From a bacterium (lineage in GTDB: Bacteria; Hinthialibacterota; Hinthialibacteria; Hinthialibacterales; Hinthialibacteraceae): a DNA stretch of 64,000 bases. Shown piece after piece: positions 1-22,351 of this stretch. The position numbers and the translations under genes are program-made. The notes under the pieces are model-generated. The model had not been told where the DNA came from, did no database searches, and worked only from the letters and a program-made list of their open reading frames with translations. Numbering within the stretch: the first letter of the stretch is position 1; each line of letters begins with the position of its first letter. The stretch spans positions 1,280,001-1,344,000 of the forward strand of contig CAXXMV010000008.1 of the NCBI GenBank assembly GCA_963662285.2, read 5' to 3'.

Positions 1-73
1 GATGCCCTGCAACGATGGATGAAACAGGGTGTCCTCCATCGCCGCGAGGATTTAAAACAAAAAGGGTGAGAAC

Positions 74-496
74 ATGTACGAAAACCTAAAAAAAACCCAA
101 GTAAAAGAAGAATACGTTGCCGATAGGCAAAACGAAAACGCAGACAAGAATTCGAGTGCGCCAATCCAGGTGTATGACGTCAAAAACGTTCGGGCCGCGG
201 TATTCGAGAAAGTTGTTACAACCAAAGAGGGTAACCAGAAGAAATACCTGAACATATCGTTCGGAAAGAGGTATCAGGATAAGGAAGGCAAATGGAAAAC
301 GTCTTATTCGCTCGATCCGGATGAGATTGAACCGGCCATAGGAATTCTGTGTGATGTGAGAAAATTTCTCAAAGGCCTTGAAGACAAACAACCAGCTCCG
401 CCCTCCGGGGCTGGCTCTTTTTCTTTACCGTCACAAGAAGTCGCAACCGTTTATTTCGCGGAAATGAATGCGCCGGAATGGCTGGAGACTATATAA
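74..496 (+). CDS. PC4/Whirly-like putative ssDNA-binding protein
   Basis: VRAAVFEK...YLNISFGKRYQDKEGKWKTSYSLDPDEI matches the small MGE PC4-like pattern; low-complexity acidic/aromatic tail. Confidence 0.6.
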   Translation: MYENLKKTQVKEEYVADRQNENADKNSSAPIQVYDVKNVRAAVFEKVVTTKEGNQKKYLNISFGKRYQDKEGKWKTSYSLDPDEIEPAIGILCDVRKFLKGLEDKQPAPPSGAGSFSLPSQEVATVYFAEMNAPEWLETI

Positions 497-510
497 GTGG
501 GGTGAGATGA

Positions 511-915
511 ATGGAAGCGAAAAATGCGGATATGGGTGAGAGTTACCCGTCATCGGTTCAGGAATGTCAATTTGAACCAGTAGGAGATTGGATTGCGCGT
601 GAGTTTGATTTTATCCCCACACATGCGGTTTCTGTATTGTACGAGCTGGGACGAGATCAGTTAGAACGTCTAGACCGGCCTGATATTAACGAACAACTCA
701 TTATTTTCCCCGCAGGATGGGTCGTAATGTTTCATCCGCGTGAATTGGAAATTGAACGATTTATCAAGCAGAATCCGGCGATTATTGCAGATTGCGGCTT
801 TCTTGTTTATGACTCTGAGTCTTTCGGAATTCTTCTTGGAATGGATAAACCAGGTTTTGTTTTCTATTCAGAATGTTGGGAAAAACTCCAGAGAACACTC
901 TTACGGATAAAATGA
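511..915 (+). CDS. Hypothetical protein of an MGE-associated family
   Basis: RBS GGGGTG; C-terminal GFLVYDSESFGILLGMDKPGFVFYSECW motif recalled from phage/ICE hypotheticals. Confidence 0.6.
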   Translation: MEAKNADMGESYPSSVQECQFEPVGDWIAREFDFIPTHAVSVLYELGRDQLERLDRPDINEQLIIFPAGWVVMFHPRELEIERFIKQNPAIIADCGFLVYDSESFGILLGMDKPGFVFYSECWEKLQRTLLRIK

Positions 916-1004
916 TTTTTTTTATTGAAACATTTGCCAGGTATCACTTAAACGTGGGTGATACCTGACTCAGGTATTAAACAAAAATGAATGAGGTGAA
1001 CTGA

Positions 1005-1586
1005 ATGGGATTGCACACATTCGTCCATACCGGCGGGCGAGAAAAAGAATTTATCGGGAAATGCAAAGCGTGGCTTAAAGAGAGAAATTTGTCTATTCAC
1101 GATGTGAATATTTGGAAAGTTGGCGATAAGGATGGAGATATCTGTTGGGATTATTGCCAATCTCGAATACTGGGAAGCACGATTTCGCATATTCAAGGGA
1201 TTAAAAAACCATTCGCGTATCATTATAACGACGATTTTGATTTTATCCATGATATGACGCCAGAAGAGACAAAAAGAATGGGTGAGAGGGCATTGGCGTT
1301 TATTGAGAAATGTATGAGAGAACTGCCGCGATGCCATAAAATACCGGGCAATTTTTATCTTAAAAATGGCAAACTGAAATATGAATTTGTGAATTCGCAT
1401 AAAATGTTGAACGCCTCTTTGCCTCAAGCGAGATGGTTTATCATGGTGGGGGAATGTGGATTTCCAACGGTATCCAGTTATCATGGGGAATTACCAAAAA
1501 ACGAACAAAAATATCATACCGATACAGAAGCAATACGCGCGATATTTGGGAAAATATGTAATTTTGCCAATTCCGATCTGTCGTGA
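1005..1586 (+). CDS. Hypothetical protein
   Basis: 193 aa ORF with GAGGTG RBS, co-oriented with neighbours. Confidence 0.65.
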   Translation: MGLHTFVHTGGREKEFIGKCKAWLKERNLSIHDVNIWKVGDKDGDICWDYCQSRILGSTISHIQGIKKPFAYHYNDDFDFIHDMTPEETKRMGERALAFIEKCMRELPRCHKIPGNFYLKNGKLKYEFVNSHKMLNASLPQARWFIMVGECGFPTVSSYHGELPKNEQKYHTDTEAIRAIFGKICNFANSDLS

Positions 1587-1723
1587 TGATTTCATTGGAA
1601 TATGCAGATGATCAAAAGATTTCGTTTTAAGAGAGACATAATCCAATTAAGAGTTACACCTTCCGGAATTAAACGGCAGTTCAGTGGACGGATGGCTAAT
1701 CACACCAACAATACAAAAAAAGA

Positions 1724-1760
1724 TGGCTGGAACGAAATAATCCGTCCCAGCCTTTTTTAT
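1724..1760. terminator. Bidirectional intrinsic terminator
   Basis: GGCTGG-AACG...CGT-CCCAGCC stem with an upstream A-run and downstream T-run, between convergent genes. Confidence 0.6.
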
Positions 1761-1777
1761 TGATCTGCAATTGCGCG

Positions 1778-2299
1778 TTAACTTAATTTAATCTGGAATA
1801 TCTGGGAAAATTCCTCTTTGTTTTTTTCTTTTTTCGGTTTTTTAGACCTTTCGTGAAGCATTTGAAGCGCGACTGATGGGGGCAGATTTTCTTCTAAAAC
1901 AAGAACGATCGGAATGATATGGGTTTCGGCGAATACGAGACTTCCATAAATCGTCTCATGAATCATCTTTTCAGTAATTTCTCCATCAAAGGCATTGCAT
2001 AAGGAGCGATATAGTATGTTTCCATTGTCAAAATCGAATTCAAAGGTACCGTGAATGTTCCCTCGATTCGCCCGTGTGACTAATTCAATTATTACCAAGT
2101 ATTTATCAACTTGCGTGGACACAGGAAAAAGGGTATAGAAACACAACCGGTTCTTGATTTCATCGATATACGCAATACAAATCCACGTGAAAGAATCATG
2201 ATTGAACATCATTTCCAATCCATTCTCACGCTCCATTATCCTCGCTTTTGGATCAATTCCTTTAATATAGTCGGCTACGGCATTAGTGAGTTTATTCAT
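1778..2299 (-). CDS. YbjN-domain protein (T3SS chaperone-like fold)
   Basis: ELVTRANRGNIHGTFEFDFDNGNILYR signature; start moved to the ATG after a GGAGG RBS. Confidence 0.75.
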   Translation of the reverse strand: MNKLTNAVADYIKGIDPKARIMERENGLEMMFNHDSFTWICIAYIDEIKNRLCFYTLFPVSTQVDKYLVIIELVTRANRGNIHGTFEFDFDNGNILYRSLCNAFDGEITEKMIHETIYGSLVFAETHIIPIVLVLEENLPPSVALQMLHERSKKPKKEKNKEEFSQIFQIKLS

Positions 2300-2544
2300 T
2301 GGAATTCCTCCTTTTTCAATTTCAGTCAATAATACAGATAGACCTATTTGGAGCGTTTTTATGTTTACGATGCGATTTAATTATAAAAAAAATGGATTTC
2401 AATCCGTTTTGCTATCATCTAAGTACTATTTCATGGTGGGGAGTGTGGATTTTCATCTGTAATTAACATGAAGATATACAGTTTCTCCTATTCCATTCTG
2501 TTGTAAGATGCTTTATAAACTCATTTTAGGAGAAGAATGCTGCA

Positions 2545-2865
2545 ATGAAGCGTATCACCATCCAGAATCAAACGGCCAATTCTTTGGGTTGGCAATATTC
2601 TATAAGTGTCGAGAACGGCGGCGATACCGTTCTCTATACGATCAATCTCGATCAGGATTACTATCAGCGTCTTACGCATGGAAAGATCGAATCGTCTGCA
2701 TTGGCAAGATTTTCTGTAGAATTTCTGATACGAAAGAACCGTATTGGTGCGTTTTCGAAAGCCATCAATATTCGGGCGATTGCAGAATTGCTTCCTGAAT
2801 TTGAACGTGAAATACAGGCGGATTTGAAACGGACGTGCGACAATGAATCACACAATCGATCATAG
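2545..2865 (+). CDS. Conserved hypothetical protein
   Basis: AGGAG RBS; SVEFLI...LLPEFERE pattern of a small DUF-like family. Confidence 0.65.
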   Translation: MKRITIQNQTANSLGWQYSISVENGGDTVLYTINLDQDYYQRLTHGKIESSALARFSVEFLIRKNRIGAFSKAINIRAIAELLPEFEREIQADLKRTCDNESHNRS

Positions 2866-3562
2866 CAAGATGCTAGGCCGCTACATCGAATTGCGAGATA
2901 TACGCGATAGGCTTAGACAGGAAATTCTTGAAACAGTGCCTCATAGCGTTCTTCAAGAAATAGGAAAGTCTTTGGGATTATACAAGCGGAATCGAAAAAA
3001 GAAGCATTTTGAAGGCCACAAACGAGAAATTGAGAGAAAATTTGTATTTGATACCGGGTCAGAAGGCATCTTATTAACGGATTACACGATCCATAATTGT
3101 TATCGAAACAGAGTGAGTATTGTCGAAGATTTTTTGAATGAGTGCGCCTATGCGGATAATTCTGATGAGCGGATTTTACTGAAAGTTTTGGTCGAAGCGC
3201 GTTATACGATTGTCAAAGTCATGGGTATTACGAAAGGCATCGGTTTATTCGTTGAAGATTTTGAGGCCAATCAATTCTTCCTGATGGATATTGGATTGAG
3301 CAAATGCGTTTCCAAAGGCAATTTTTTAGCGACTCGAATTATTTCTTTGGATTCGATGCAAATGACGACGGGAGCGGCGCTCCCGTTTTTTGACCAAGAA
3401 AGTTTAGACAAGGTTTTCAAGATTTATGAGACCTATCTTGACGATTTTACTTTAGATAAAATCACTCAATTATCGCCTACAACTAAAAGCAAAATTGAAA
3501 GACGAATTATTCTTTTAGGCCTTCAGAATGGCGCAGTAAATTTTATAACAAGCCAATATTGA
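2843..3562 (+). CDS. Hypothetical protein
   Basis: 239 aa ORF overlapping the previous gene; followed by a hairpin at ~3595-3632. Confidence 0.7.
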   Translation: MNHTIDHSKMLGRYIELRDIRDRLRQEILETVPHSVLQEIGKSLGLYKRNRKKKHFEGHKREIERKFVFDTGSEGILLTDYTIHNCYRNRVSIVEDFLNECAYADNSDERILLKVLVEARYTIVKVMGITKGIGLFVEDFEANQFFLMDIGLSKCVSKGNFLATRIISLDSMQMTTGAALPFFDQESLDKVFKIYETYLDDFTLDKITQLSPTTKSKIERRIILLGLQNGAVNFITSQY

Positions 3563-3772
3563 CTCAAGGATGTTTTGTTCTTATCGAAAAAAATGTGCGG
3601 TTGTCTTTCGTGATGAAGACACCCGCACGTCTTTAGAGGTGATATGATATGGACAAAATAAAGGAACCAATAGACCGTTTCAGACCCGAACCGGACGATA
3701 GGGACCGGATCATGATAGAGATAAGTGATCGCGATCATTTCAGAGCGGCGATGGAAGCCGAACTTGGACCAA

Positions 3773-5158
3773 TCAACTAATCCTGTGATTCAATGCATCA
3801 GTACGACTGATATTCGCAGTTGTAGAAGCGATAAAAGCATATAAACCGCATGCAAAAGCGACCAACTTAAAAGGTACTCTTTCCAGATAATCTTGGATTG
3901 ACACGATCGCTACATTTAGTCCACACGATTGAAACTCTTCTTCAAATTTAACTGCTTGCTCCTCTCCAACCGTATAGAGAATAGGCATACCAATTTCCAT
4001 CAGAATATGATCAATGACATCAATTCCTATTTCTTTTCTCATGGCCGATAACATAGAATAAGTGAGTGGAAAAGGACAAGAAATGGATTCCAAATGTTGT
4101 ATCATTGAAATTTGATCAGACAACGTACAATCACAAGTCTCGTTGTTATCTCGGATGATAAGCGTAAGTTTGTCTGAATCGGCAATCATTTCTGTTAATG
4201 CCATGGATAATATTCTTGAACGATAGGAACGATAAAGTTCAAAAATATCAGACAAACTAAGATATACCAGCTGATAAATTAAAGACTCGGGTAGATAAAA
4301 GACTGGGGTCATTACTGTCGGTGTTTCGGATATGGATACATCCTCAAGACATTCTCCTGGAATTATTAGACCGCCCCTTACAGCTAGAAACTTTAACCGG
4401 AACGCCGATATTAGTTCAAAAGGCAGACCTGTTTTCCACATCGCTTTCCGCGCTAACAATCGTTGCTCATTGAATTCTTCTGGCATGTAATAACACGCTC
4501 CGGCGCCGATTCCGATATGAATATCGGCTAATCCTCTGGCTCGAAAAATTTTAGCGATTTCTCTGAAAACGTGTCTCGTAAATTCCACACAGTTGGTTTT
4601 CTTCTTCAATTCAACTGGATGAGATGTTTCACTAAGCAATTCTGAGTAAAAATCCTCGCTGTTCCATCGCAAAATATTTTCAGAACCAATCCCCCAGAAA
4701 ATACTACTCATCAACATGTTGGAGATGAGTAACCTTAAGGGGAATTCAAGCATGGCGTTTTCGAATTGCGGATGCAATTCTTTCACATACTCGATCAACG
4801 CTTTAATGAGTGTGAGTTCAGAGAACGTTGGGCACCAATTTACAGGATCATAAAGATATGGAGATAGTATGGCGTCAAGGATAAGGGGCCAAATCTTAAT
4901 GTTATCTTGCTCTCTAGAAATATCTGTAAGAACAACAAGCGTTTTGTATGGAATCGATTTCTGATGACTATACCAATCAAGAATCTCATATATATGAGTA
5001 GTAAGATCATATGCTTTCAATTCATTATAATCTTTCCGGGATATTGATTTCTTTATCGATAATTTCTTCGCTATCCTCGCGAGAGTGAATTTAATTGGGA
5101 TTTGATGAATGTTTTTCTGTTGCAGCATGATTTTCCTCCTGTTTTTTTTGCTTGTCAT
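3773..5158 (-). CDS. Hypothetical protein
   Basis: 461 aa ORF; no family recognised; start uncertain (5158 or 5128). Confidence 0.75.
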   Translation of the reverse strand: MTSKKNRRKIMLQQKNIHQIPIKFTLARIAKKLSIKKSISRKDYNELKAYDLTTHIYEILDWYSHQKSIPYKTLVVLTDISREQDNIKIWPLILDAILSPYLYDPVNWCPTFSELTLIKALIEYVKELHPQFENAMLEFPLRLLISNMLMSSIFWGIGSENILRWNSEDFYSELLSETSHPVELKKKTNCVEFTRHVFREIAKIFRARGLADIHIGIGAGACYYMPEEFNEQRLLARKAMWKTGLPFELISAFRLKFLAVRGGLIIPGECLEDVSISETPTVMTPVFYLPESLIYQLVYLSLSDIFELYRSYRSRILSMALTEMIADSDKLTLIIRDNNETCDCTLSDQISMIQHLESISCPFPLTYSMLSAMRKEIGIDVIDHILMEIGMPILYTVGEEQAVKFEEEFQSCGLNVAIVSIQDYLERVPFKLVAFACGLYAFIASTTANISRTDALNHRIS

Positions 5159-5219
5159 GTCATACTGTTCATCGTTCCATCATTAAGGGAACTAGGAATC
5201 CTTCCAAAATGAAAAACAA

Positions 5220-5684
5220 TTATTGTTTTTCACCGTTAATTTCCAGAATTTTCTTGATGAGGCATCCCTTTACAATATCCGGTTGGGGTTCATCAAATAA
5301 TTCATTTTCACATTCGTATTTGATCCCGAATTTTGTTTCTGCCATCACTTTTAATTTGCTCGGTAGTTCGATATCTAGCAATTGCTCAGCCAGATCGCCT
5401 TCCGCATAAAAATCACAGTTAAAAGAACTTCTCCAAGAATATAATCTGACTGTTTCTCCAATACGTAGACCAATCGCTTGGCAATCTTTTTCATTGGCGC
5501 TAACAAATTCTGATGACAATTCAAATTCACAGGTGAAATCGATATCTTCCATTCTTTTAGGAATTTTCTTGAAACGTTCAATAAACTTTTCTAATTCCTT
5601 ATCATCAAAATGTTTTGATTCATTCTTATTTAACTTTTTTGTTGTTGTGGTTTTTCTTGACATGATTTTTTCCTCACATTCCAT
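5220..5684 (-). CDS. Hypothetical protein
   Basis: 154 aa ORF; likely start at the second ATG (MSRK) after GAGG. Confidence 0.65.
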   Translation of the reverse strand: MECEEKIMSRKTTTTKKLNKNESKHFDDKELEKFIERFKKIPKRMEDIDFTCEFELSSEFVSANEKDCQAIGLRIGETVRLYSWRSSFNCDFYAEGDLAEQLLDIELPSKLKVMAETKFGIKYECENELFDEPQPDIVKGCLIKKILEINGEKQ

Positions 5685-6328: not shown

Positions 6329-6724
6329 GTGATGAAAATGAAACCAACCTTAGAGCACTATGTGACGCAAACACCAATGAAGAAATATCTGTCAGACAAT
6401 TTCCACACAGAAGAAAAACAATTTCCATCTCCTGCTATAGGTTATAAAATATTTACTCAGCACAAAAGAGAATTTGCCTCTAGTCCACTCGAACAGAGAA
6501 CATCTCAACGCGGAAAAGATTTCCTAAAATTAAGGCATTGCGCTTTGCTCCATAAATTTCTTGTTAAAATATTAACGGAGCATCTTCAAGAGAAAATGAT
6601 CGGAGAGCCCGATCAAATAAATTTTGAAAACATAATTTTTGATCTGCATATAGCCAAAAGAGGTCTTAAAATAATTGAGCGATTATATCGTGAGTTGGGA
6701 TTGCCGATCGAGAATGAGAAATAA
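6329..6724 (+). CDS. Hypothetical protein (helical C-terminus)
   Basis: ORF with GGAG RBS; weak resemblance to 10962..11228. Confidence 0.55.
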   Translation: MMKMKPTLEHYVTQTPMKKYLSDNFHTEEKQFPSPAIGYKIFTQHKREFASSPLEQRTSQRGKDFLKLRHCALLHKFLVKILTEHLQEKMIGEPDQINFENIIFDLHIAKRGLKIIERLYRELGLPIENEK

Positions 6725-6917: not shown

Positions 6918-6935
6918 ATAGCGAGGTGAAACCAA

Positions 6936-7211
6936 ATGGAAAAAAACAACAAAAAACAACCCATATACAAAGACAAAGCAGGCCGATTTAAGATTAGCGT
7001 CTGGAAAAGTGAACGCGCTATTGACGATAAAAATTTTCTTATGAGTAAAGTCGTCGATACCTCAAAGGCATGTATTCAATACAGCCAGTACAATAAAAAC
7101 ACCAATTCGTGGCAAACCCAACAAATCTGGTGCTTCTGCAACGACGTACACAACTTGGTCAAACTGCTTGATCGAATCGGCGAGGGCGAGGAATCGCCCG
7201 CCCTCAATTAG
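6936..7211 (+). CDS. PC4-like putative ssDNA-binding protein, paralog 3
   Basis: GAGGTG RBS; PIYKDKAGRFKISVWK...CIQYSQYN...WQTQQIWC. Confidence 0.6.
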   Translation: MEKNNKKQPIYKDKAGRFKISVWKSERAIDDKNFLMSKVVDTSKACIQYSQYNKNTNSWQTQQIWCFCNDVHNLVKLLDRIGEGEESPALN

Positions 7212-7374: not shown

Positions 7375-7608
7375 ATGAAAAAGAAAGCATACGAGATACA
7401 AAAAGAGAACACACCACGTTTTACCCGGCAATGCGTATGTGGAAGCATTTTGGAGGTTGCCTATAATCCAGATTTGAACATTACATTCTGGAATTGTTTT
7501 AACTGTTTTCCGATGTATGAAAGAGTATATGGCGAACAGAGAAAAGAATTTGAGGATGGGTTTTATCGCTCTATGGGAAAAAATAATATTGAATGTTTTC
7601 GGATATAG
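7375..7608 (+). CDS. Small zinc-ribbon protein
   Basis: CxC...CxxC (CVCG, CFNC); GAGGTG RBS. Confidence 0.55.
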   Translation: MKKKAYEIQKENTPRFTRQCVCGSILEVAYNPDLNITFWNCFNCFPMYERVYGEQRKEFEDGFYRSMGKNNIECFRI

Positions 7609-7899
7609 ACAACATCATTTTCTTTTTGCCACATAAGCCATCCGGATGTTTTCCCCCACCTTCGCTCCTCCACATCTCCAGGATATCAGGATTGGCTTGT
7701 GTTGGCATTTTTTTTCTTTTTTTGTCTTCTTCGCTGTTTCTTCGATCAAGCCCTTATTCAGTATTCACTCGGCTTTTTTGTTTGGCCGTCGATGCGTAAT
7801 GGTTACGTAGTCTTCATAAATGTTCGCTCCTTCCGCCCCCGTTTTTCGTTCGTCTTTCCGAGTGGAGACGTCCGAAACGTTTCCGGAGGAGCGAAAAAA

Positions 7900-14485: not shown

Positions 14486-16516
14486 TCATGACGTTTTGGG
14501 ATTCAAAAAATTCCATAGCGCGGTCACCTCCAGCCGCCCTGCTAGAATTTCTTTTTTTAGTGATTCATTCTCTTTCAATTTCGGAGTGATTTTTTTCCGA
14601 AATTCATCGTCTTTTGTCACGCAAAAGATACGATCAGCTTTAGTCTTCACACATTCGATTAAATTACTGAAATAATTCGACTGTCCCGTCTCAAACTCAA
14701 TCGCCAAAATGGTTTCTTTATTGAACGCGCAAAGATCAATGAGATGGGAAGAAGGAGCAAGCGCAAATTCTCGTTTGACATCAAAGGCTTTGTTTTTAAA
14801 AAACTTTTCAATGCGATCAACAGCAAAAGCATGAACAAATCCGCCCTTATGGACAGGTTTGTTCAATCCGACTTTTCGCCAACCTTCTGAAGATAATTCA
14901 AAGGCCTTCCAGGGGCCAATTAATTGTTTGACCAAAATCTTTAATGATATGAGTTGTTCAACGCCTTTATTGAACGCGTCGTTACTAATCTCAAGTCGTT
15001 CTTTTAACTCACTGGAATTCAAATACGGATGATTGGCGATTTCGATAAGAATTTTCTTCGCGTTTTCACTAAATTCAGGTTTATCTTTTTCCCGTGTTTC
15101 TTTTTCTGACTGATCCTCTAATGCCGTATAATGGTATTGCTTTTTTCTTTCTTCGTTTTGTTGATCCCATTCCGGCTTATCTACAATGTCGGGATGTTCG
15201 AAGGGGAATCCCTGAAACATGACTGCGCCCTGGCTGCTAGTAGAACTAATAATAAACTGCCCCTCCTGAAGCATGGCAATCTTATTAGCATTTTCGGTTC
15301 TAATACCGAGAAGATGGGTCATAGAAATCGCCATATTAAAATTCTTGGTGTAACCGGTGATTTTGTTTTCGATCGAGGTGATGTATTTGGGATCGACACC
15401 ATCAAGCGTATGAAATGCCATAACAAAGCCGAGCTGATTTTCTCGTGTAAGATTGATTTTGTTGGCGACTGAATCGATCCGATCGCCACTGTGCTTCTCC
15501 ATAAATTCTTGGGCGTCATCAATAATAAACACCCAGAATTTTTTTTCGCGTTCGGGTAAATCCTGGTTATCCAAAATAAATCGATCAGCCAAATGAGTAA
15601 TAATTAATTTTATTTCCTTAACTTGGCCATCACCGTAGTTAACAATAGTTGGACGATCACGCATCGATTCATACATTCCCTGGCGAGCGTGAAATACTTT
15701 ATTTTGTGACCATAGACGGCGTAAAACACTCTCGGCGCTGTCAATGTATTTTTTTTGGTGGGGTTTGACTCCCGGAACCTGGTTTAAAACTTCCTGTAAA
15801 TCGCGGATAGTAGGAAAACCTTGTTTCCGGATGCGTTCTGGCGGCCATTTACACGATAATATATTGACTGCCTCCACTAGAAATCCAATGCTGTTTTGCA
15901 ATGAAAAAATCTCGTGGATGGGAGATACCGCTGCTTGAAACCAGCGAGGAAGGTTTTGATAGTTACTTGATTCAAACAAGGAAAGTCGTAGTTCATCCCA
16001 AAAAAATGTTGTGAAAATTGGGCCACGTTCTCCTACAACGTTTTCGAACTGGTTACGCTTTTTCTGGAAAATAGTCAGGTTAACGCCATGGCACAATAGT
16101 TGCATACATAGATGGCGAAGTAATGTCGATTTTCCCGCACCGGTTCCAGCAAGGATGGCCAGATGCCGTACAATATCGAAACGATTCAAGGCGCAAGGCT
16201 CTTGTGTTTTCATATCCACACCAAGAAAAATTTCTCCAAAAGTTACCGGATCATTCCTTACGATTGGACGAATGAGATTGGGATCATATCCAAAAAGATT
16301 CAATCGCTGGGCGTACTTGATAATCTTTTTGAAAATTGCCAAACTCGGTTTACGCATAAACTGCTTTGCTTTTATGAGCAAATAGTTATTATTTTTTGCC
16401 GCTGGATGGTTGATAATATTTTCAATAATCAATTTCGCTTTTTCCGCATTAAATTCATTAGGAGCACCTTCATTGTTTTGAGGGCGGGAACTATTGTTTT
16501 TATTTTGATTGGGCAT
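14486..16516 (-). CDS. HerA/VirB4/VirD4-superfamily P-loop ATPase fused to wHTH and a PD-(D/E)xK-like nuclease domain
   Basis: RHLAILAGTGAGKS (Walker A); FIIDDAQ (Walker B); HTH-like SSELKERLEISNDAFNKGVEQL; H...E...IDL...AIEFETG. Confidence 0.8.
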   Translation of the reverse strand: MPNQNKNNSSRPQNNEGAPNEFNAEKAKLIIENIINHPAAKNNNYLLIKAKQFMRKPSLAIFKKIIKYAQRLNLFGYDPNLIRPIVRNDPVTFGEIFLGVDMKTQEPCALNRFDIVRHLAILAGTGAGKSTLLRHLCMQLLCHGVNLTIFQKKRNQFENVVGERGPIFTTFFWDELRLSLFESSNYQNLPRWFQAAVSPIHEIFSLQNSIGFLVEAVNILSCKWPPERIRKQGFPTIRDLQEVLNQVPGVKPHQKKYIDSAESVLRRLWSQNKVFHARQGMYESMRDRPTIVNYGDGQVKEIKLIITHLADRFILDNQDLPEREKKFWVFIIDDAQEFMEKHSGDRIDSVANKINLTRENQLGFVMAFHTLDGVDPKYITSIENKITGYTKNFNMAISMTHLLGIRTENANKIAMLQEGQFIISSTSSQGAVMFQGFPFEHPDIVDKPEWDQQNEERKKQYHYTALEDQSEKETREKDKPEFSENAKKILIEIANHPYLNSSELKERLEISNDAFNKGVEQLISLKILVKQLIGPWKAFELSSEGWRKVGLNKPVHKGGFVHAFAVDRIEKFFKNKAFDVKREFALAPSSHLIDLCAFNKETILAIEFETGQSNYFSNLIECVKTKADRIFCVTKDDEFRKKITPKLKENESLKKEILAGRLEVTALWNFLNPKTS

Positions 16517-16534
16517 TTTTTCTTCTTCCTTCCT

Positions 16535-17104
16535 TTATTGATTGGTAATTCGGGGATGATTTAGGTTTTCAGTCAGGTAAGGTTTGATCGCATCCAAGCA
16601 ATCGATCTTATGCACCGCGATCAAACGATTTTGAAACGGAAGTATGATTCCGCAGTACCGGCAAACCTGGTGCATACATGCGCCACAGATTTGATGGGCT
16701 TGTGCACAATTGTTGCAATAAAGCCGTCCGCAGCAGAAACTCATTCCAACGAATTGTTTCTCCGGTTTGTGCAAAATCTTTAAACAGGTTGGACAAAAAC
16801 ATTTTGGACGAACATAGTAACGGGCTTCCCCGCCGTCATTGGTCTGAACGGTCACATGTCCGGTAATATATTCCACCCAGAAGTTATGGGAATAATAAAT
16901 GGGATATATTTCCAGGCTGCTCTCAATAATGAATTGAGGGTCCACACCATAATAATCACAGATCGCTCGAAGATGTTCTCGCTTCAGAACCAAGCGTTTG
17001 GATTGTTTCTGATGATGGGATCTTTGACTCTGGGATGACGCTTCCGCGAACGGTTGTGAGATCCACCTAAGAAAATTCTGTAAATCTTTCCAGGACATAA
17101 TCAA
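16535..17104 (-). CDS. Cys-rich multi-zinc-binding protein
   Basis: CFCPTC...CC...CNNC...CGAC...CRYC...H..C. Confidence 0.7.
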   Translation of the reverse strand: MIMSWKDLQNFLRWISQPFAEASSQSQRSHHQKQSKRLVLKREHLRAICDYYGVDPQFIIESSLEIYPIYYSHNFWVEYITGHVTVQTNDGGEARYYVRPKCFCPTCLKILHKPEKQFVGMSFCCGRLYCNNCAQAHQICGACMHQVCRYCGIILPFQNRLIAVHKIDCLDAIKPYLTENLNHPRITNQ

Positions 17105-17395: not shown

Positions 17396-17983
17396 ATGAA
17401 GGGAGTAATTATTACCATGTCTCAATCCCCAGAAACAATGAACCAAAGCAATCAAGCTCAGTCGATGGATGAAACGATCGAGCAACTTAAAAAAGCAAAA
17501 GAAATGCTCGAATCAAGTTCATCCAGTGATGATTCAGAGGACGAGAAAGCGAGTCTTGATGAGAAAGCGCTTCTATCATTAATCGATTGCTTACTCAAAG
17601 TGTGCAGTCACGTTCGTCTATCGGGACGCGCATTTCTTTCCGTAGCCAATTCACTGCATAAGATCGCCAATTTATCGTCGCCAAAATCGAAAAAACGAGT
17701 TGCGATTGAAGGAATTTTATCCGTACAACTCGCTTCGTTGGGTATGTTGGGATTTGAAACTATAGGCAGTGATGAATGGGAAGGCTCTGAATTGGATCTA
17801 TCCTGCCAACGCGTCCTTGAAAAACTGCCCGCAAATTCCAAGCGACCGCACAAAACTATCGTGAAATTTGAATCTTATGGGTTGAAATTAAACGGCTTGA
17901 TGATTTCACCTGCCGAGGTTGTCGCCGCCATAGATAAAGCTACGCCAAAGGAGAATGAAAACAATGACAATGACTCAGATTAA
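17396..17983 (+). CDS. Divergent GrpE-like nucleotide exchange factor
   Basis: Helical N-terminus; IEGILSVQLASLGM; C-terminal TIVKFESYGLKLNGLMISPAEVV resembles GrpE; overlaps the Hsp70 gene. Confidence 0.7.
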   Translation: MKGVIITMSQSPETMNQSNQAQSMDETIEQLKKAKEMLESSSSSDDSEDEKASLDEKALLSLIDCLLKVCSHVRLSGRAFLSVANSLHKIANLSSPKSKKRVAIEGILSVQLASLGMLGFETIGSDEWEGSELDLSCQRVLEKLPANSKRPHKTIVKFESYGLKLNGLMISPAEVVAAIDKATPKENENNDNDSD

Positions 17984-19565
17984 TCAACTCAAACGTTTCA
18001 AAAAAGGTGAGTTTCCTGTTGATCCTTATACTTGCTTTCTTGCCTTTGATTTTGGAAATTCCTCAACCAAGGTAATTCTTGTAAAGATACTTGAGAGCGG
18101 AGAAATCCTCTATCGTTTAGTCTTAGTTGATGGGTGTGAAACCTGCCCAAGCAAAGCCGTGGTGGGACCGGACAATGATTTAGTATTTGGATTAGAGGCA
18201 GTCAATTATATATTGACCGAAATAGTCGCATCGTACTCTGTTGGCAAGGATCAACTAGATCAACCCAATCAACCGAGCATTAGTACAATCGTTGATGCGA
18301 AAGATGCGAAAGATGCGAAAATTTTCAGGTCGCATGATGTTTATCGAAAGTACATAGCGTTTATTTTCGACAAAGTTAGCCAATCTATCGATTATCTGGC
18401 GTATTTGCTTCCTCTTTTCGTTTCGTGCCCCGCAAATTTCTCTTCACGGCAAAAAGGGATTTTTCTTGATACTTTGAAAAAATGTGGATGCGAAAATATC
18501 CTGGGATTAGAAAACGAACCGACTCAGGCATTCAAAAAAATTATCACACAAGAAAATATTCATGGAAATATTCTCATTTATGATATGGGAGGAGGGACAA
18601 CAGATGTTACTCTTGGTTATTATGATCCAGTAAAAAACGAATTTTCCATTCTTGAATCGCAAGCCTGTTCGATCGCTGGACATGATTTCACGCATATCAT
18701 TACCAATGAAGTTATCCAGAGACTTTTTCAAGGTGAGTCAATAGATCCATGTGTGAATACAAAGATTTTTTATGAAGCCGAAGCCGCCAAGGAATTTCTT
18801 TCTGAAAACATAAACGCTCCCATGTTGCTTCCGTATGGAAAGGATATTATTCCATTCGAATTTAGCCGTGATCTTTTTGAGTCGCTCTCAGCCGAAAAAC
18901 AAAGCAAAATTCTGAGTGAAATAGACCGGGTAATTAATGCGGGAAAACTCAATCATTCTCAGATTGATTTTGTCGTCATCACTGGTGGAGCGACTCTGAC
19001 TCCTTTTGTGCGCCGAGAAATCACGCAACATCTGCCTAACGCCCGGCCAATCTACAGTCATGCTCCATTATTCGATGTTGTTCAGGGAAACGCGATCTCA
19101 GGAGTGCATGTCCTTCAGCAAGAAAAGCAGCTAATTCTAAGTGGAATGTACTTGTCCCCTCCGAAAGTACGCAATATTCTTAATCACGATATAAGTATAG
19201 TAGTAACTAACTCCAGTGAAGAATACAAACGTCGCAATTTTTTGCTCATTCCCCAAAAAAAAGAACTTCCTGCTCAGGCTTCTATTTCAAGATTTTGCCC
19301 ACTATATGAAGGGCAAACTGAAGCCCATATACAAATAACAAAAGGGCTTCCTAATTCGGAATACGATCCTAAGGATCTGATTGGTGAAGCGGTTATCCCG
19401 CTCACTCCCGGCAACCTAAAACGAAAAGAACAGGTTGAAATTATCCCGTCCATCGACGAATCCAACGTTGTGACCATTATCGCTCGTGATTTTCTCTCTC
19501 CCAATCCAGAGGATCACGAAATCGTCATCAAACTTGACTATCTTTTGGAGGAAACAGCCGATTAA
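17955..19565 (+). CDS. Divergent Hsp70-family protein lacking the helical lid
   Basis: DFGNSST, CPANF, NEPTQA, YDMGGGTTD, EAAKEFLS, ITGGAT; SBD-beta remnants (GQTEAHIQI, IDESNVVTIIARD). Confidence 0.9.
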   Translation: MKTMTMTQINQLKRFKKGEFPVDPYTCFLAFDFGNSSTKVILVKILESGEILYRLVLVDGCETCPSKAVVGPDNDLVFGLEAVNYILTEIVASYSVGKDQLDQPNQPSISTIVDAKDAKDAKIFRSHDVYRKYIAFIFDKVSQSIDYLAYLLPLFVSCPANFSSRQKGIFLDTLKKCGCENILGLENEPTQAFKKIITQENIHGNILIYDMGGGTTDVTLGYYDPVKNEFSILESQACSIAGHDFTHIITNEVIQRLFQGESIDPCVNTKIFYEAEAAKEFLSENINAPMLLPYGKDIIPFEFSRDLFESLSAEKQSKILSEIDRVINAGKLNHSQIDFVVITGGATLTPFVRREITQHLPNARPIYSHAPLFDVVQGNAISGVHVLQQEKQLILSGMYLSPPKVRNILNHDISIVVTNSSEEYKRRNFLLIPQKKELPAQASISRFCPLYEGQTEAHIQITKGLPNSEYDPKDLIGEAVIPLTPGNLKRKEQVEIIPSIDESNVVTIIARDFLSPNPEDHEIVIKLDYLLEETAD

Positions 19566-19567
19566 AT

Positions 19568-19627
19568 TTCCGGCCCGAATGCCGTCCGGTGAATCCTTCA
19601 ATTCGCCGGACGTGATGCGAGTCAGAA
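19568..19627 (+). other. 60-nt structured intergenic element, copy 1
   Basis: 41/60 identical to 21894-21953, with compensatory base changes. Confidence 0.7.
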
Positions 19628-19651
19628 GAATATTCATTAACAAGAGAAAAA

Positions 19652-20440
19652 ATGAATCCTATATACACCATAACAGATATTCAAATCGCGTTGCAAGTCT
19701 TACGATTTAAGCCGACCGATATCCCCATCGATCCGGCGAAAATTAAGCGGCAAAAATCAGTATGTGTCAATATAATTTCTAGCGATTTTGCGAATGTCAA
19801 TCGCGCCTCTGGAGAGTGGGCGAACAAACAAAAAGAACTGAATGTTGCTTGCGCCATTCTGAATTCCACTTTCACTGTGATCAATGAGAATCCAGACAGT
19901 TATTTTAAAGATCAACCTTGCGCGGATTCTGCTACGCCGCGATCGAATTCTTCTCCGAATTATCAGCGGCCAAATCCAGAATACAACAATCCCCAGAACA
20001 CATCATACGCATATACGCAACCTCAACATGCTCCTCCATTTGAACCAGCTAGTGAGCATTATCAAGACCGAAGGATCATGCTGGCTGCTTCCATCTTTGT
20101 AACAATGATTCTTCTTATCGTTATGGTCTTGTTCAGGCAGCCTTCTGAACCGAAATATGGCTACCTTTATGTCGAAACAATCTTTTCGGAAAAATTTAAT
20201 TCAAAAATGTGGACTTATTTCTCTATCTATAAGAGTGGATTGCGTGGACAGCACGTAAATGACGCCGAGAGCAATCCGGTCGATCCGATCAGATTGCCTG
20301 TCGGCGCATATACATTGGTATTGCGCATCAAGCCAAATCCCTTGCGAATTAAAAACGTCAAGGTTCAACCCAATAAAGTAACACATATCGCCATTCGCGA
20401 TGATCAATATCAATCGAAATATGAGGAGATCAGACCATGA
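19652..20440 (+). CDS. Membrane protein with degenerate J-domain-like N-terminus and a C-terminal beta domain
   Basis: ALQVLRF...AKIKRQ...SSD...KQKELNVACAIL; P/Q/Y-rich linker; one TM; PEGA-like LPVGAYTLVL. Confidence 0.6.
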   Translation: MNPIYTITDIQIALQVLRFKPTDIPIDPAKIKRQKSVCVNIISSDFANVNRASGEWANKQKELNVACAILNSTFTVINENPDSYFKDQPCADSATPRSNSSPNYQRPNPEYNNPQNTSYAYTQPQHAPPFEPASEHYQDRRIMLAASIFVTMILLIVMVLFRQPSEPKYGYLYVETIFSEKFNSKMWTYFSIYKSGLRGQHVNDAESNPVDPIRLPVGAYTLVLRIKPNPLRIKNVKVQPNKVTHIAIRDDQYQSKYEEIRP

Positions 20441-21228
20441 ATAAGATTATTTCCCCAATCCTTCTAACAATCGCAATCATGATGAACACAGGATGTGTGA
20501 TAGTGCCAATCGCTGCTGCCGGTGCTGTTGGATTTCTTGGTGTCGCCATGCACGAACAAGGTAATTCAAATCCTGTGAAAAAGAAACGTTCATCCAATAA
20601 CAAACCGTCTCGTTCCGATGAATTAACGGAATTTAGAATCGTGTCAAGCGAAACGCCATCATACGCAGATCGTCCGGTAGGAACGCAAATACCAAAAGCG
20701 CAGCTTGCAAACATCACAACACTCAAGCCAGTTCAACCACCAGCGGCAAAGAGAAAATTCTCATCCGATTTGAGTTTATTAGAATCCCGTGAAACCAACG
20801 GATGGACGTCTCCAACGAATATTTCATTTGAAGCAGATCCACCAGTCTCTCATAAAACAAACAGTCAGATTGATTACTCTGATGACTCGAATGTGAATGT
20901 ATTTTCACAAGAAGATAGACGAAGCGATCTCTTACAAGCAGAAGAAGATAGAACCAATTTACGTGAAGCCGTTCAGTTGTTTAAGCAGTTCAAGTATGAC
21001 GCTGCCTGTCAGTTACTTGAACGAATCGATCAGCAATTTCTTTCAAACCATGAAAAGGAGGAAACCTTGTTTTACCTTGCTCTTACATCTTTGAAATTGC
21101 GTGAAAAACGAATGGCGCAAAGGTGGTTTTCACTTCTTATTGAAGAAAATCCCCACATTTTATCTTCACCATTAGCGAGGGATTTATCGCCATCGCAAAT
21201 CAGTTTTTTCAAACAAATGTTGTATTAA
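20437..21228 (+). CDS. Lipoprotein with C-terminal TPR-like repeats
   Basis: Lipobox-like NTGC; disordered middle; EAVQLFKQFKYDAA...TLFYLALTSLKL...AQRWF. Confidence 0.7.
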   Translation: MNKIISPILLTIAIMMNTGCVIVPIAAAGAVGFLGVAMHEQGNSNPVKKKRSSNNKPSRSDELTEFRIVSSETPSYADRPVGTQIPKAQLANITTLKPVQPPAAKRKFSSDLSLLESRETNGWTSPTNISFEADPPVSHKTNSQIDYSDDSNVNVFSQEDRRSDLLQAEEDRTNLREAVQLFKQFKYDAACQLLERIDQQFLSNHEKEETLFYLALTSLKLREKRMAQRWFSLLIEENPHILSSPLARDLSPSQISFFKQMLY

Positions 21229-21261
21229 TTAAAACCAATCACAAGACAAAGGAGCATCGAC

Positions 21262-21669
21262 ATGACGGATAACAATTTACCAACATTTTACATGACAGAA
21301 GACGAACTCATTCCTGAAGGCGTCTATCAAGCTGAATGCACCAAAGTGGAAAGCATCAAAGAGGGCAGATACATCAAGTTTACTTTCCGAATCTTGGATT
21401 TTAGCCTTGAGAAAAACTTTGCGAATGGACTCTGCGAAACACGAAGCAACCGATCTTCCAGTTTCGTACGCTGGGTTAGAACGCTTTCGGGTATTGAATT
21501 CTCTAAAGACCAATCCTTCAACTTGAATGAGTTGCAGCATGACATTATTGGGAACCATTGCTTTGTTCGGATCAAGCATAAAGAAAAAGACGACCGTGTC
21601 TTTGATAACGTCGTAGCGGTTTATCCGCACGATGATTCGCGATTTATAAAATCGTCAAAGGAGGAATGA
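21262..21669 (+). CDS. DUF669-like phage OB-fold (SSB-like) protein
   Basis: LIPEGVYQAECTKVE...IKFTFRI...DIIGNHCFVRIKH...FDNV. Confidence 0.65.
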   Translation: MTDNNLPTFYMTEDELIPEGVYQAECTKVESIKEGRYIKFTFRILDFSLEKNFANGLCETRSNRSSSFVRWVRTLSGIEFSKDQSFNLNELQHDIIGNHCFVRIKHKEKDDRVFDNVVAVYPHDDSRFIKSSKEE

Positions 21670-21893
21670 GACGAATGATTGTACCCGCTACCTTGAAAAA
21701 AGTCATAACGCCGGAAGGGAAAGTTTATTACGAGGGTTTTTTCCCTTCTTGTATATCCAAGAGCAAAGAGGATCTTAAAGTGATCGGTTACGATGAAGAA
21801 AATGTTCCATCTGAATTGCGTTCTATGGCGTCAAAAGTTCCAGCGAAAGATGGTCATTTTTATCTTTTCATTGAAGAACTGACCAAGAAGTGA
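21666..21893 (+). CDS. Hypothetical protein
   Basis: GGAGG RBS; ATGA overlap with previous gene. Confidence 0.6.
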   Translation: MRRMIVPATLKKVITPEGKVYYEGFFPSCISKSKEDLKVIGYDEENVPSELRSMASKVPAKDGHFYLFIEELTKK

Positions 21894-21953
21894 TTCCGTA
21901 CTGGATGGCCTTCGGTGAGGTAATCGCTTCGCCGGAGCCGATGCGAGACGGAA
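21894..21953 (+). other. 60-nt structured intergenic element, copy 2
   Basis: Homolog of 19568-19627. Confidence 0.7.
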
Positions 21954-21962
21954 TTATTATTA

Positions 21963-22196
21963 ATGAGTAATGAGATGAAGAAACAAGGCATCAATCCAAT
22001 ATGTGACGAATCTGATGTTCCTCTCAATATGAATATTGAGCAAGCCGCTCGTTATCTTAATACAACTCCCCGTCAGTTACGTGATCTCGTTCGCGATAAA
22101 ATTATTCCTCATTTTCGTGTTGGACGTTTGGTACGTTTCAACCGAAAAAAACTTGCTGAATGGGTTGAATCACGAATTGAAGAGCCCATCTTCTAG
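21963..22196 (+). CDS. Excisionase-like HTH protein
   Basis: MNIEQAARYL...IPHFRVGRLVRFNRKKLAEWV; next to the att/tRNA. Confidence 0.9.
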   Translation: MSNEMKKQGINPICDESDVPLNMNIEQAARYLNTTPRQLRDLVRDKIIPHFRVGRLVRFNRKKLAEWVESRIEEPIF

Positions 22197-22202
22197 CCTA
22201 AT

Positions 22203-22280
22203 TCAGTCATTTTGATTCCAACTAAAACAGAAAATCAGTCAAAAATCAGTCATTGCAAAAAATCAGTCAAAAATCAGTCA
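22203..22280. repeat. Putative integrase arm-type binding sites
   Basis: AAAATCAGTCA x4 as two tandem pairs (22231-22252, 22259-22280), plus TCAGTCA at 22203. Confidence 0.7.
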
Positions 22281-22351
22281 AAATGATATTTGCCGATTTC
22301 TCAGTTTTGGATAGCCGTTCGTAAAATGATGTTTTTGAGGGGTTTAGAAAG

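Follow-up and report, generated by a model that had tools for sequence, protein, structure and literature searches.

The described systems closest to the locus reported here are integrative elements that donate DNA without a type IV secretion system (T4SS). ICETh1 of Thermus thermophilus is integrated at a tRNA gene, has 47-bp repeats and a recombinase, encodes the membrane-bound, hexameric HerA-like protein TdtA, and depends on two nucleases for DNA donation (PMC5365140). In TraB, a C-terminal helix-turn-helix (HTH) recognizes the clt site (PMC5365140). We analysed a 64,000-nucleotide stretch of DNA (hereafter ‘the window’; C8:1280001-1344000) of a 7.29-Mb genome assembly (8 contigs, 44% G+C, 92.5% complete) from a bacterium of the phylum Hinthialibacterota, along with a comparison set of 35 genomes of this phylum, which carry labels such as G000 (the host genome), G003, G004, G010, G012 and G019; C1 is a second contig of G000 that holds a paralogous copy of the element. 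Positions 1-22,395 of the window are the conserved backbone end of a larger island, and not a whole element. The evidence supports the classification of this island as an undescribed integrative element, and one may speculate, by analogy with ICETh1 or TraB, that its ATPase/Hsp70 module serves the donation of double-stranded DNA (dsDNA), a reading that we hold tentatively and with somewhat less than even confidence.

The likeness to ICETh1 comprises integration at a tRNA 3' end, repeats of ~45 bp, a site-specific recombinase, the lack of a T4SS and a relaxase, and a membrane-associated HerA/FtsK-class ATPase working with nucleases, which for the island is a prediction (PMC5365140). ICETh1 differs in spanning 14 kb and in having its nucleases, a NurA-like protein and a type IIG enzyme, as separate proteins (PMC5365140), whereas the island spans 165 kb, has a nuclease-like domain and a winged helix fused to the motor, and adds two small transmembrane (TM) proteins, a Zn-ribbon protein and a GrpE-like/Hsp70-like operon. 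TdtA and the island ATPase are likened here by description, and transfer is known for ICETh1 whereas the island is known from its genes alone. The actinomycete integrative and conjugative elements (AICEs) of the TraB type likewise combine int/xis at a tRNA site with replication genes of their own, a single FtsK-class pump with a C-terminal DNA-recognizing HTH, small membrane proteins beside the pump, and double-stranded transfer without a T4SS, the last of which is proposed here for the island. However, TraB has its own membrane anchor and no nuclease domain, AICEs reside in another host phylum with another envelope, and in the island neither a Pfam FtsK_SpoIIIE match to the window ATPase nor a clt-type set of 8-bp repeats was identified.

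The boundaries of the island follow from its tRNA-Lys gene. This gene is on the minus strand and its 3' end hence faces the element; the last 45 nt (22351-22395) recur as a direct repeat, identical at 45/45 positions, at C8:1137417-1137461 when the tRNA region is searched against the genome with BLAST. These two att cores are 165 kb apart, the second one being left of the window, and no further core copy of at least 13 nt is found between them. A tyrosine integrase gene (C8:1137685-1138734; Phage_integrase E 7.5e-29 over profile positions 2-171 of 172, with SAM-like domains at the N-terminus) is located 224 bp past the left core, where a second HTH_17 gene is found, too. The arm-type motif T[CG]AGTCA occurs five times at the right end and four times, as TGAGTCA, at the left end. 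Its tandem 16-nt form, AGTCAAAAATNAGTCA, has 3 copies in 7.29 Mb (both strands), two next to tRNA-Lys and one at the far end, ~60 bp ahead of the integrase gene; given this genome-wide restriction to the island ends, the ends are the two arms of one attP. Together with the 45-bp repeat and the integrase, the presence of AGTCAAAAATNAGTCA at both ends argues for a single integrase-defined island, C8:1137417-1302395 (164,979 bp), which was evidently inserted by a tyrosine recombinase into the 3' end of tRNA-Lys(CTT). Excision would bring the right-end HTH_17 gene and the integrase side by side; with attP between xis and int, the two genes end up 165 kb apart in the island. The att core, the arm repeats at both ends, the integrase and HTH_17 genes and the conserved synteny described below are established at the level of sequence. 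The location of tRNA-Lys beside pheA is kept in 3/10 relatives' loci that were scanned for tRNAs, and an empty-site comparison with G015 and G016 revealed no synteny between the far side of their tRNA-Lys site and the island's left flank.

A sequence-only reading of window positions 1-22,351 had described a tRNA-Lys-integrated element apparently built around a single-stranded DNA (ssDNA) phase. Its right end was read accurately: ARAGORN and Rfam recover the tRNA-Lys(CTT) gene, the excisionase-like gene matches both HTH_17 and TIGR01764, and the arm-type repeats recur in their tandem form at the island's far end. The tyrosine integrase and the duplicated tRNA-Lys 3' end that this reading suggested looking for in the left flank are present there, though 165 kb away, and a canonical phage module or mating-pair-formation/mobilization (MPF/MOB) module, which would have offered another explanation of the element, was not found in the 143-kb left flank. 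The suggestion of an undescribed integrative element is thus borne out by the integrase, the att repeat and the absence of canonical modules.

The last point draws on several scans. Pfam was applied to 165 island proteins in all, among them the products of 138 of the 139 genes called in the interior (the remaining one being a 1715-aa NACHT-WD40 paralog of a scanned protein), and returned no T4SS, relaxase, capsid, portal or tail family. Among the 82 proteins scanned with PHROG there was no capsid, portal or tail match either, and the sole terminase-type matches were P-loop-only matches to phrog_2666; divergent folds could have escaped these scans. VirB4 (PF03135) has no match anywhere in the 92.5%-complete assembly, and the relaxase family PF03432 is absent genome-wide, with other MOB families covered through the Pfam scans of island proteins alone. 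The earlier observation that no recognizable T4SS, capsid or HUH relaxase is in view thus extends to the island as a whole.

The conserved backbone begins with a serine-recombinase gene 6.5 kb left of the window and extends through window positions 1-22.4 kb (~29 kb). It is found in synteny at seven loci in 6/35 genomes (the window, C1, G003, G004, G010, G012 and G019), with the short contigs of G010 and G012 carrying parts of the same gene order. As identified by tblastn of the window's open reading frames (ORFs), the genes shared with the family encode (i) the serine recombinase (61% identity in C1, 53% in G003), an AbrB-like protein, a DUF3987/P4-type helicase (47%) which matches PHROG helicase and primase families, a DUF5131 protein and the ssDNA-binding protein SSB (49%), (ii) the 140- and 134-aa proteins, the β-rich 117/91-aa proteins, the 77-aa Cys-rich protein and an acidic peptide, (iii) two small membrane proteins, the ATPase (31-55%) and a 189-aa Cys-rich protein, and (iv) the GrpE-like and Hsp70-like proteins (27-33%), a 135-aa SSB-like protein (39-44%) and HTH_17. 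The similarly deep identities of the resolvase, helicase, SSB, ATPase and Hsp70 (27-61%) point to inheritance as a unit and not to an exchange of cargo. Close homologs of the ATPase are present in 5/35 genomes (C1 of G000, E 1e-135; G004, 1e-162; G003, 1e-114; G019, 3e-50; G012, 4e-31) and Hsp70-like homologs (E up to 1e-25) in 4/35, all within the five that have the ATPase; since these genomes are kin, the overlap is to be taken as co-occurrence and not as statistics. As the sequence-only reading had anticipated, the ATPase, Hsp70-like and small-protein genes do occur together in other genomes of the phylum.

Three family copies abut tRNA genes, namely tRNA-Lys(CTT) in the window and G004 and tRNA-Pro(GGG) in G019, and the right-end HTH_17 gene is at the same end in C1, G004 and G019. 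The right end of G004 consists of HTH_17, a tandem GGTCACCAT repeat and tRNA-Lys(CTT), and that of G019 of HTH_17, an integrase-like ORF and tRNA-Pro(GGG). In C1, an integrase gene is convergent with HTH_17 and preceded by a tandem CATGACA repeat, and no direct repeats of at least 13 nt were found around this copy; in G003, the Hsp70 operon is followed by two integrase genes. Family integrases are just 26-28% identical to each other, a divergence suggestive of module exchange. The elements constitute a small family of tRNA-targeting integrative elements, known to date from this phylum alone. Among the papers found that name the phylum, none deals with mobile elements in its title or the opening of its abstract. 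As far as these searches extend, our analysis is the first to define a mobile-element family in this uncultivated phylum, and it clearly delimits a 165-kb island bearing BREX along with many further defence genes. The C1 copy adjoins ArdC-like and dndD/dndE genes (L026:15295-19422), and G019 (L030:5685-6854, C155) has an AEP-TOTE-type primase gene (Pfam E 3.6e-35) between its Cys-rich and GrpE-like genes.

The 676-aa ATPase of the backbone is predicted to combine a motor, a winged helix and a restriction-endonuclease (REase)-type domain in one chain. Its motor is recognized by Pfam DUF87 (25.2 bits vs. a cut-off of 23.2) and by the PADLOC profile mad8 (E 1.5e-14; profile positions 4-297 of 314). 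For the AlphaFold model (mean pLDDT 68, with the Walker-A stretch below 50 and the C-terminal third well modelled), the best structural match is the DndH C-domain (Z-score 19.2; r.m.s.d. 4.1 Å, 293 residues), followed by VirB4 (Z 15.6), HerA (14.5), DotL (14.4), Cag-beta (14.1) and TrwB (13.1), and Foldseek yields E 3e-8 to 1e-7 to DndH-C, HerA and TrwB. The model hence places the motor in the HerA/FtsK class of folds. Residues 476-552 resemble a MarR-like winged helix (Z about 10; AdcR/ZitR by sequence profile, E 3e-4), and DSSP analysis of the model reveals for residues 553-676 the α-β-β-β-α-β order of the restriction-endonuclease fold. Residues H562, E583, D594, E607, E609 and N618 are invariant in 9/9 aligned ATPase sequences; D594, E607 and E609 may correspond to the D-E-E triad of BamHI. 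Weak matches of this domain are to MTES_1575 (3/9 sequences; best E 0.0034), CoiA_nuc (2/9), Hjc (2/9) and BamHI (1/9), and to AF1548 in the PDB (E 0.003). Considering its topology, the invariant D..ExE and the weak family matches, residues 553-676 probably form a nuclease of the restriction-endonuclease fold. The ATPase-nuclease fusion with two small membrane proteins that had been read from the translations is thus recovered as a DUF87 motor with a modelled domain of REase topology, accompanied by a 2-TM and a 1-TM protein. Homologs of these small proteins adjoin the ATPase in C1, G004 and G012, and the 189-aa Cys-rich gene, for whose product no family match was found, is kept upstream of the ATPase in C1, G003 and G019.

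Relatives of the ATPase are few. A word-indexed search identified one, and ~9 close ones are found among 1.84 billion representatives, beyond which there is a broad set of DUF87 proteins of ~650-720 aa having the same length and layout. Searches with the ATPase alignment retrieved no relative from 2.9 million viral contigs or from metagenome contigs, and the G004 contig only from genome contigs. By tblastn, the ATPase has no match in plasmids or in 50,697 phage records; the distant homolog P0021 has 24%-identity matches on plasmids to the ATPase domain alone. A cluster look-up of 10 ATPase homologs returned no names. Distant homologs of the same layout in G009, G030, G032 and G033 are located in unrelated contexts, that is, next to HicAB, a methylase-SNF2 fusion and a ParB-like gene.

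The chaperone operon (17396-21228, plus strand) is divergent from the ATPase operon. Its Hsp70-like protein scores 72 bits (cut-off 20.6) over profile positions 137-498 of 599, which covers nucleotide- and substrate-binding parts, and remains far below the cut-offs of the nearest NCBIfam models, HscA and DnaK. GrpE-like genes occupy the same position upstream of Hsp70 in the window, G003 and G019, with scores of 23.3 and 23.5 bits for the window and G019, below the cut-off of 25.8, and of 34.2 bits, above it, for G003. Of the ‘private chaperone operon’ noted earlier, the Hsp70-like member is thus firmly recognized (E 4e-20), whereas the GrpE-like one is sub-threshold in the window and passes in G003. 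The proteins encoded after Hsp70 vary between the copies (262+263, 286+171, 377+187 and 403 aa) and several of them are membrane-anchored. A J-like reading of the N-terminus of the 262-aa protein, made by eye, found no support in any search. In C1, the Hsp70-like gene is split by an insertion sequence (IS; Transposase_29, 663 aa; L025:14431-18366, G000:C1:209431-213366).

That the module diverged deeply and in step with the replication and integration genes speaks for a part in propagating the element itself and, together with ICETh1 and TraB as the closest precedents, leads us to favour donation of dsDNA. In such a scheme, the left-end integrase and the right-end HTH_17 protein would excise the island and rejoin its ends across attP, and the circular form would be maintained by the P4-type helicase, SSB and SSB-like proteins and the resolvase. 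The co-inherited ATPase operon would act at the membrane as a hexameric dsDNA motor, whose winged helix would pick a site in cis and whose REase-fold domain would cut, with the Zn-ribbon protein and the two small membrane proteins belonging to the machine. The latter would then cut and pump double-stranded element DNA out of the cell independently of a T4SS, and the membrane-linked GrpE-like/Hsp70-like set might assemble or drive it. If the module does move DNA, it would join TraB and TdtA as only the third known kind of conjugation-like transfer that is free of a T4SS, and no earlier kind has a dedicated chaperone.

Several points weigh against dsDNA donation. The motor's nearest relatives by sequence and fold (Mad8 and DndH-C) are defence ATPases and defence systems abound in the island, the assignment of the nuclease domain draws only on the topology of a whole-protein model and on weak matches, and the distant ATPase homologs of the same architecture sit in unrelated, defence-like contexts. 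A J domain is missing: across the window, C1, G003 and G019, none of the seven proteins whose genes follow Hsp70 has a DnaJ match at E up to 5. The ATPases of G004 and G019 are truncated and G004 is devoid of the Hsp70 operon, suggesting that the module is dispensable for persistence. Excision, a circular form, transfer and expression were not observed; the three sequencing runs that contain the locus, all as contigs and with no RNA run among those listed, exhibit no att junction, no cover of the hairpin array discussed below and no intron-less form. Moreover, the 165 kb may include nested elements, considering the second integrase, the IS copies and the host-like genes. Finally, the host genome encodes ComEC, as do 10/14 control genomes; being so common, ComEC discriminates little.

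Given that defence ATPases are the motor's nearest relatives, the ATPase-nuclease operon might alternatively, alone or along with Hsp70, constitute a conflict module in which a translocating restriction-like nuclease destroys incoming phages or rival elements, comparable to DndFGH, MAD7-MAD8 or HerA-nuclease systems, with the small membrane proteins as anchors or abortive-infection effectors. We regard such a role as quite possible and only somewhat less likely than dsDNA donation. In terms of fold and profile, these systems are indeed nearest (DndH-C with Z 19.2 vs. at most 15.6 for conjugation ATPases, and mad8), they share the ATPase-nuclease logic, and MAD7/MAD8 have been described as an ATPase-nuclease module (PMC13662399). 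Hsp70-like domains have likewise been noted in predicted defence systems (PMC11090510). The island itself contains BREX-1, TIR, NACHT-WD40 and RelA/SpoT-type genes, the C1 copy is 15 kb from dndD/E, the genes after Hsp70 vary between copies like effector modules, and distant ATPase homologs adjoin toxin-antitoxin and methylase-helicase genes. However, the module co-diverged with the backbone to 27-37% at a fixed position, which is unusual for fast-turnover defence cargo, and is paired there, as a fixed part of a mobile element, with an Hsp70 operon. Moreover, the backbone has neither DndF nor DndG, a kinase, a methyltransferase or another self-marking partner, and no MADS genes beyond a generic HTH: the MADS system is an eight-gene mad1-mad8 operon with a methyltransferase, a kinase and two ATPase-nuclease modules, and among the 26 window proteins scanned with PADLOC only the ATPase (mad8) and HTH_17 (mad1, E 2e-4) match MADS models, that is, 2/8 components. 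Were its role one of defence, the module would count as a new system of the HerA class, in which the nuclease is fused to the motor and Hsp70 acts as a partner.

In the P4 satellite and in phage-inducible chromosomal islands (PICIs), an integrase and an AlpA-like gene accompany a P4-type helicase/primase and structural genes are lacking. The island exhibits the same combination of tyrosine integrase, AlpA/Xis-like HTH_17 and P4-type helicase/primase-like gene without structural genes, and it shares with P4 and PICIs the att site at a tRNA 3' end, the arm repeats and the load of defence cargo. It might thus be a satellite-like or cryptic viral replicon whose ATPase, winged helix and nuclease act as a self-contained terminase, spreading in particles or vesicles that a helper supplies or that unrecognized genes encode. 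Motor, nuclease and DNA-recognition domain do correspond to the three activities of a terminase, many small orphan and membrane proteins are encoded, and phrog_2666 (‘terminase large subunit’) matches the ATPase weakly (E 7.8e-4) as well as the island's second DUF87 ATPase (E 1.7e-10). We nonetheless consider a satellite quite improbable: these matches span the Walker-A region only, no genes for capsid redirection or packaging were recognized in the island and no capsid, portal or tail protein in the PHROG scan, the ATPase is without relatives in the viral contigs and phage records searched, and an island of 165 kb, or even its ~29-kb backbone, is large for a satellite, the island being far above the satellites in size.

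The sequence-only reading had instead assigned to the ATPase-nuclease the combined role of relaxase and translocase of an element with an ssDNA phase, with hairpins and palindromes acting as ssDNA promoters, priming signals or oriT. The 2-kb hairpin array on which it drew is real: between 8080 and 10190 there are 13 perfect hairpins (stem of at least 6) vs. 4.1 +/- 1.9 (maximum 9) in 100 dinucleotide shuffles. The array consists of two diverged superunits of ~0.9 kb each, with internal repeats of 60-84% identity, and its box GATGNNCGNN(3-6)CTCCAT has five copies vs. 0.08 expected. The best-conserved boxes are followed by TATATAT and a hairpin in which changes on both sides preserve pairing (3/9 pairs among three copies). 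The array is unique in the host genome, and Rfam yields no match to it at E up to 1; in an exact metagenome scan, its box gave one unrelated coding match, and according to RNAfold z-scores (300-nt windows) neither the array and its coding flanks nor its two strands can be separated. Among the 6 family loci in which the interval is visible, it is found in 2, the window and, after the peptide gene, G010, and is absent from 4/6, including C1, G003 and G012 (in G004 the interval is unassembled). To judge from this distribution, the array is an optional accessory rather than a part of the mechanism; it may be transcribed, as a single long RNA or as a set of small ones, or may act as a DNA site. A more far-reaching version of dsDNA donation, which we consider improbable, would make it a new large structured RNA or a cis-acting DNA scaffold of a new T4SS-independent export machine, in which a hexameric dsDNA pump with its own site-recognition and cutting domains is docked on the two small membrane proteins and assisted by a membrane-tethered Hsp70/GrpE-like motor, in analogy with the Hsp70 import motors of organelles. 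Were this machine to exist, the family would represent self-transmissible integrative elements of a new class, with the capacity to mobilize islands of 165 kb.

The palindrome cluster at 11.2-11.6 kb fares less well than the array. With three perfect hairpins vs. 1.0 +/- 1.0 in the shuffles, it is not significant on its own. However, individual hairpins are conserved: GGTCCTTCGGAC is common to the window, G012 and C1, and GGGGRTATAACCC, within an inverted repeat, is present in the window and G012 only; GGGGGTATAACCCCC (11570-11584) is located within an imperfect inverted repeat. The small genes to the left do mostly point toward the cluster (12/15 ORFs on the plus strand), and those ending at 11228 converge with the minus-strand ATPase operon ending at 13874, leaving, when the group II intron described below is subtracted, a spacer of ~550 bp of stem-loops. 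The simple reading is bidirectional termination at convergent operons, and the conservation of some stem-loops makes a cis-acting role possible. An ssDNA phase appears barely tenable to us. The canonical SSB and the SSB-like gene of the backbone, the hairpin enrichment of the array, the orientation of the neighbouring genes and the conserved stem-loop GGGGRTATAACCC, which could be a nick site, would fit with it. However, the motor belongs to a class which translocates dsDNA, as judged from its structural neighbours and the precedent of TdtA and TraB, the nuclease-like domain is predicted to have an REase and not an HUH/relaxase fold and no relaxase family match emerged from any of the scans, so that the relaxase role is not upheld, the array is missing from most loci, the palindromes coincide with convergent terminators, and the PC4-like assignments failed all tests tried.

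It is also conceivable that the module acts inside the cell only, with an FtsK-like pump and the resolvase segregating or resolving the circle, Hsp70 remodelling the initiator, and spread between cells being passive. The FtsK-type architecture of a motor with a C-terminal winged helix, the resolvase in the backbone and the position of the module between replication and integration genes are compatible with this, and host DnaK/DnaJ/GrpE are needed in lambda and P1 replication. We deem it very unlikely, though: partition would not call for a nuclease, here predicted to be of the REase fold, or for two small membrane proteins of its own, no Par or initiator gene was recognized in the backbone, and the family resides in different tRNA genes in different genera, indicating horizontal movement.

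Table 1. Features of the island's backbone end in the window (window positions; strand and basis of assignment as available).
Feature	Position	Strand	Basis or remark
140-aa and 134-aa genes	74-496, 511-915	+	directly downstream of canonical SSB
Variable segment, six orphan genes (193, 183, 106, 239, 461, 154 aa)	1005-5684	.	this copy only
β-rich paralogs, 117 aa and 91 aa	5912-6265, 6936-7211	+	36% identical; orthologs in C1, G003, G010
131-aa gene	6329-6724	+	between 117-aa and 91-aa genes
77-aa Cys-rich, zinc-finger-like gene	7375-7608	+	conserved in C1, G003, G010, G012
54-aa acidic peptide gene	7900-8064	+	conserved in C1, G003, G010, G012
Hairpin-rich, purine-rich, ORF-poor array	8080-10190	+	no ORF >132 aa
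118-aa gene, last of rightward gene set	10872-11228	+	same-size ORF at same position in G012 by eye, not by tblastn
Convergent intergenic region with stem-loops (palindrome cluster)	11229-11700	.	terminator-like sites 11263, 11330 (+)
Group II intron	~11705-13805	-	RF00029 at 11710-11781 (43.4 bits), RF02001 at 13548-13715 (57.8 bits)
Intron RT-maturase ORF	11797-13059	-	RVT_1 E 1e-41, GIIM E 2e-21; without endonuclease domain
Intrinsic terminator of ATPase operon, intron target	13810-13830	-	7-pair stem, 6 GC pairs, T-run (terminator scan)
108-aa membrane protein, 1 TM	13874-14200	-	hydropathy; downstream of ATPase
88-aa membrane protein, 2 TM	14142-14408	-	hydropathy; downstream of ATPase
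676-aa ATPase (predicted motor, winged helix, REase-type domain)	14486-16516	-	DUF87, fold matches
189-aa Cys-rich protein, multiple CxxC	16535-17104	-	first gene of ATPase operon
GrpE-like	17396-17983	+	Pfam E 5.5e-5, below cut-off
Hsp70-like	17955-19565	+	Pfam HSP70 E 4e-20
262-aa single-TM protein	19652-20440	+	hydropathy
263-aa protein, N-terminal hydrophobic anchor	20437-21228	+	one weak TPR match
135-aa SSB-like protein	21262-21669	+	phrog_378 ssDNA-binding protein E 7.8e-6; weak NGO0469-family match
75-aa gene	within 21262-21893	+	listed with 135-aa SSB-like gene
HTH_17 excisionase/AlpA-like gene	21963-22196	+	Pfam HTH_17 E 1e-12; TIGR01764 E 5e-12
Arm-type repeats, putative integrase-binding	22203-22280	+	TCAGTCA x5, two tandem pairs, 11-bp spacing
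tRNA-Lys(CTT)	22351-22424	-	ARAGORN and Rfam

Beyond the backbone, the Pfam scan of the island interior reveals a BREX type 1 cluster, TIR, NACHT-WD40 and RelA/SpoT-domain proteins and several IS elements, as well as an Orc1/Cdc6-like gene, a second DUF87 ATPase, MoxR/VWA genes and a second integrase; host-like genes encode a glycosyltransferase, a GH130 protein, an ice-binding-like protein and two-component proteins. The BREX cluster (L007:4032-17362, C8:1204032-1217362) looks complete, with BrxA, BrxB, BrxC, a PglX-like methylase, PglZ and BrxL, and is followed by a TIR-domain gene and an SbcCD-like pair. Two NACHT/AAA_16-WD40 paralogs of 1541 and 1715 aa (L004:10684-15306 and C8:1159037-1164184; 63% identical over 833 residues) enclose DUF4062 fragments and an IS21. 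A 1016-aa protein (L004:7542-10589) contains two RelA/SpoT stretches, a RyR domain and a weak SLOG (LSDAT_prok) match, and another protein combines HIRAN and ARPP-1 (L012:359-1882); proteins of either kind have been tied to conflict systems. Another, only very distantly related module (L005:18514-19773 and L006:3888-6952; C8:1178514-1186952) comprises the Orc1/Cdc6-like ATPase, a 104-aa paralog (28%) of the window's 140-aa protein and the second DUF87 ATPase, which has 634 aa, is weakly similar to the window ATPase and has the terminase-like PHROG P-loop match at E 1.7e-10; this module may be the remnant of another, related kind of element. The second tyrosine integrase (L002:4385-5521, C8:1244385-1245521), for which no att repeat was found, has DUF5131, GP88-like, HU-like and RecD-like helicase genes before it and a transposase gene after it, and its locus is possibly a nested or decayed element.

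Following transcription of the ATPase operon to its end leads to a complete group II intron, which the sequence-only reading had missed. RF00029 corresponds to domain V/VI and RF02001 to domains I-IV; the ends of the intron are approximate. It is a single copy in the host genome and starts right after the T-run of the operon's terminator. In G012, two copies are present (L038:19-756 and 7495-8238), and in each of the three copies the homology starts after a different hairpin with T-run. Class C group II introns have the habit of inserting after a terminator hairpin and T-run. The likeness to this class is one of features, that is, an RT-maturase without endonuclease domain, domains V/VI and the position after a terminator-like hairpin and T-run in 3/3 copies. 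The intron is thus best seen as a later invader of the operon terminator, and not as element machinery. In the sequencing runs mentioned above, joints inside the intron derive from introns of other organisms.

Four of the small proteins had been proposed as ssDNA-binding candidates, of which only the 135-aa protein, with orthologs in C1 (44%) and G019 (39%), has a family match, the PHROG one; the 140-, 117- and 91-aa proteins are without any. The canonical SSB gene lies 146-592 nt left of the window start. Homologs of the adjacent 140- and 134-aa proteins are in synteny in C1 of G000 (38% and 46%) and in G003 (32% and 36%), and the 140-aa protein has its paralog inside the same island. Neither of the two matches Pfam, PHROG or PDB sequences, and the Protein Atlas places the 140-aa protein in unnamed clusters only, with scores below 0.9. 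No PC4, SSB or other match was found for the 140-aa protein (Pfam E up to 5) or the 117- and 91-aa proteins (E 0.01), nor a profile match to PDB sequences. The model of the 91-aa protein comprises four strands and a helix (pLDDT 71), and its best fold match, at Z 4.5 and with Pur-α among ties, is not significant. Neither Pfam, PDB profiles nor folds thus bear out PC4-like proteins; for the 140-aa protein the PC4-like reading had been made by eye, and no search supported it. The six orphan genes at 1005-5684 have no homolog in other family loci and no family match, and the glycosyltransferase gene just left of the window is likewise private to this copy.

The acidic peptides have no family match and share the core motif GLDxIEQQRSLERA, as read from the translations. 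A longer paralog is encoded at 10612-10881, and further members are found at L033:819-1019 and L038:16166-16444. The 77-aa Cys-rich gene and the peptide gene have two copies each in G003, and acidic-peptide genes always occur close to the 77-aa Cys-rich one, with duplicates in the window as well as in G003.

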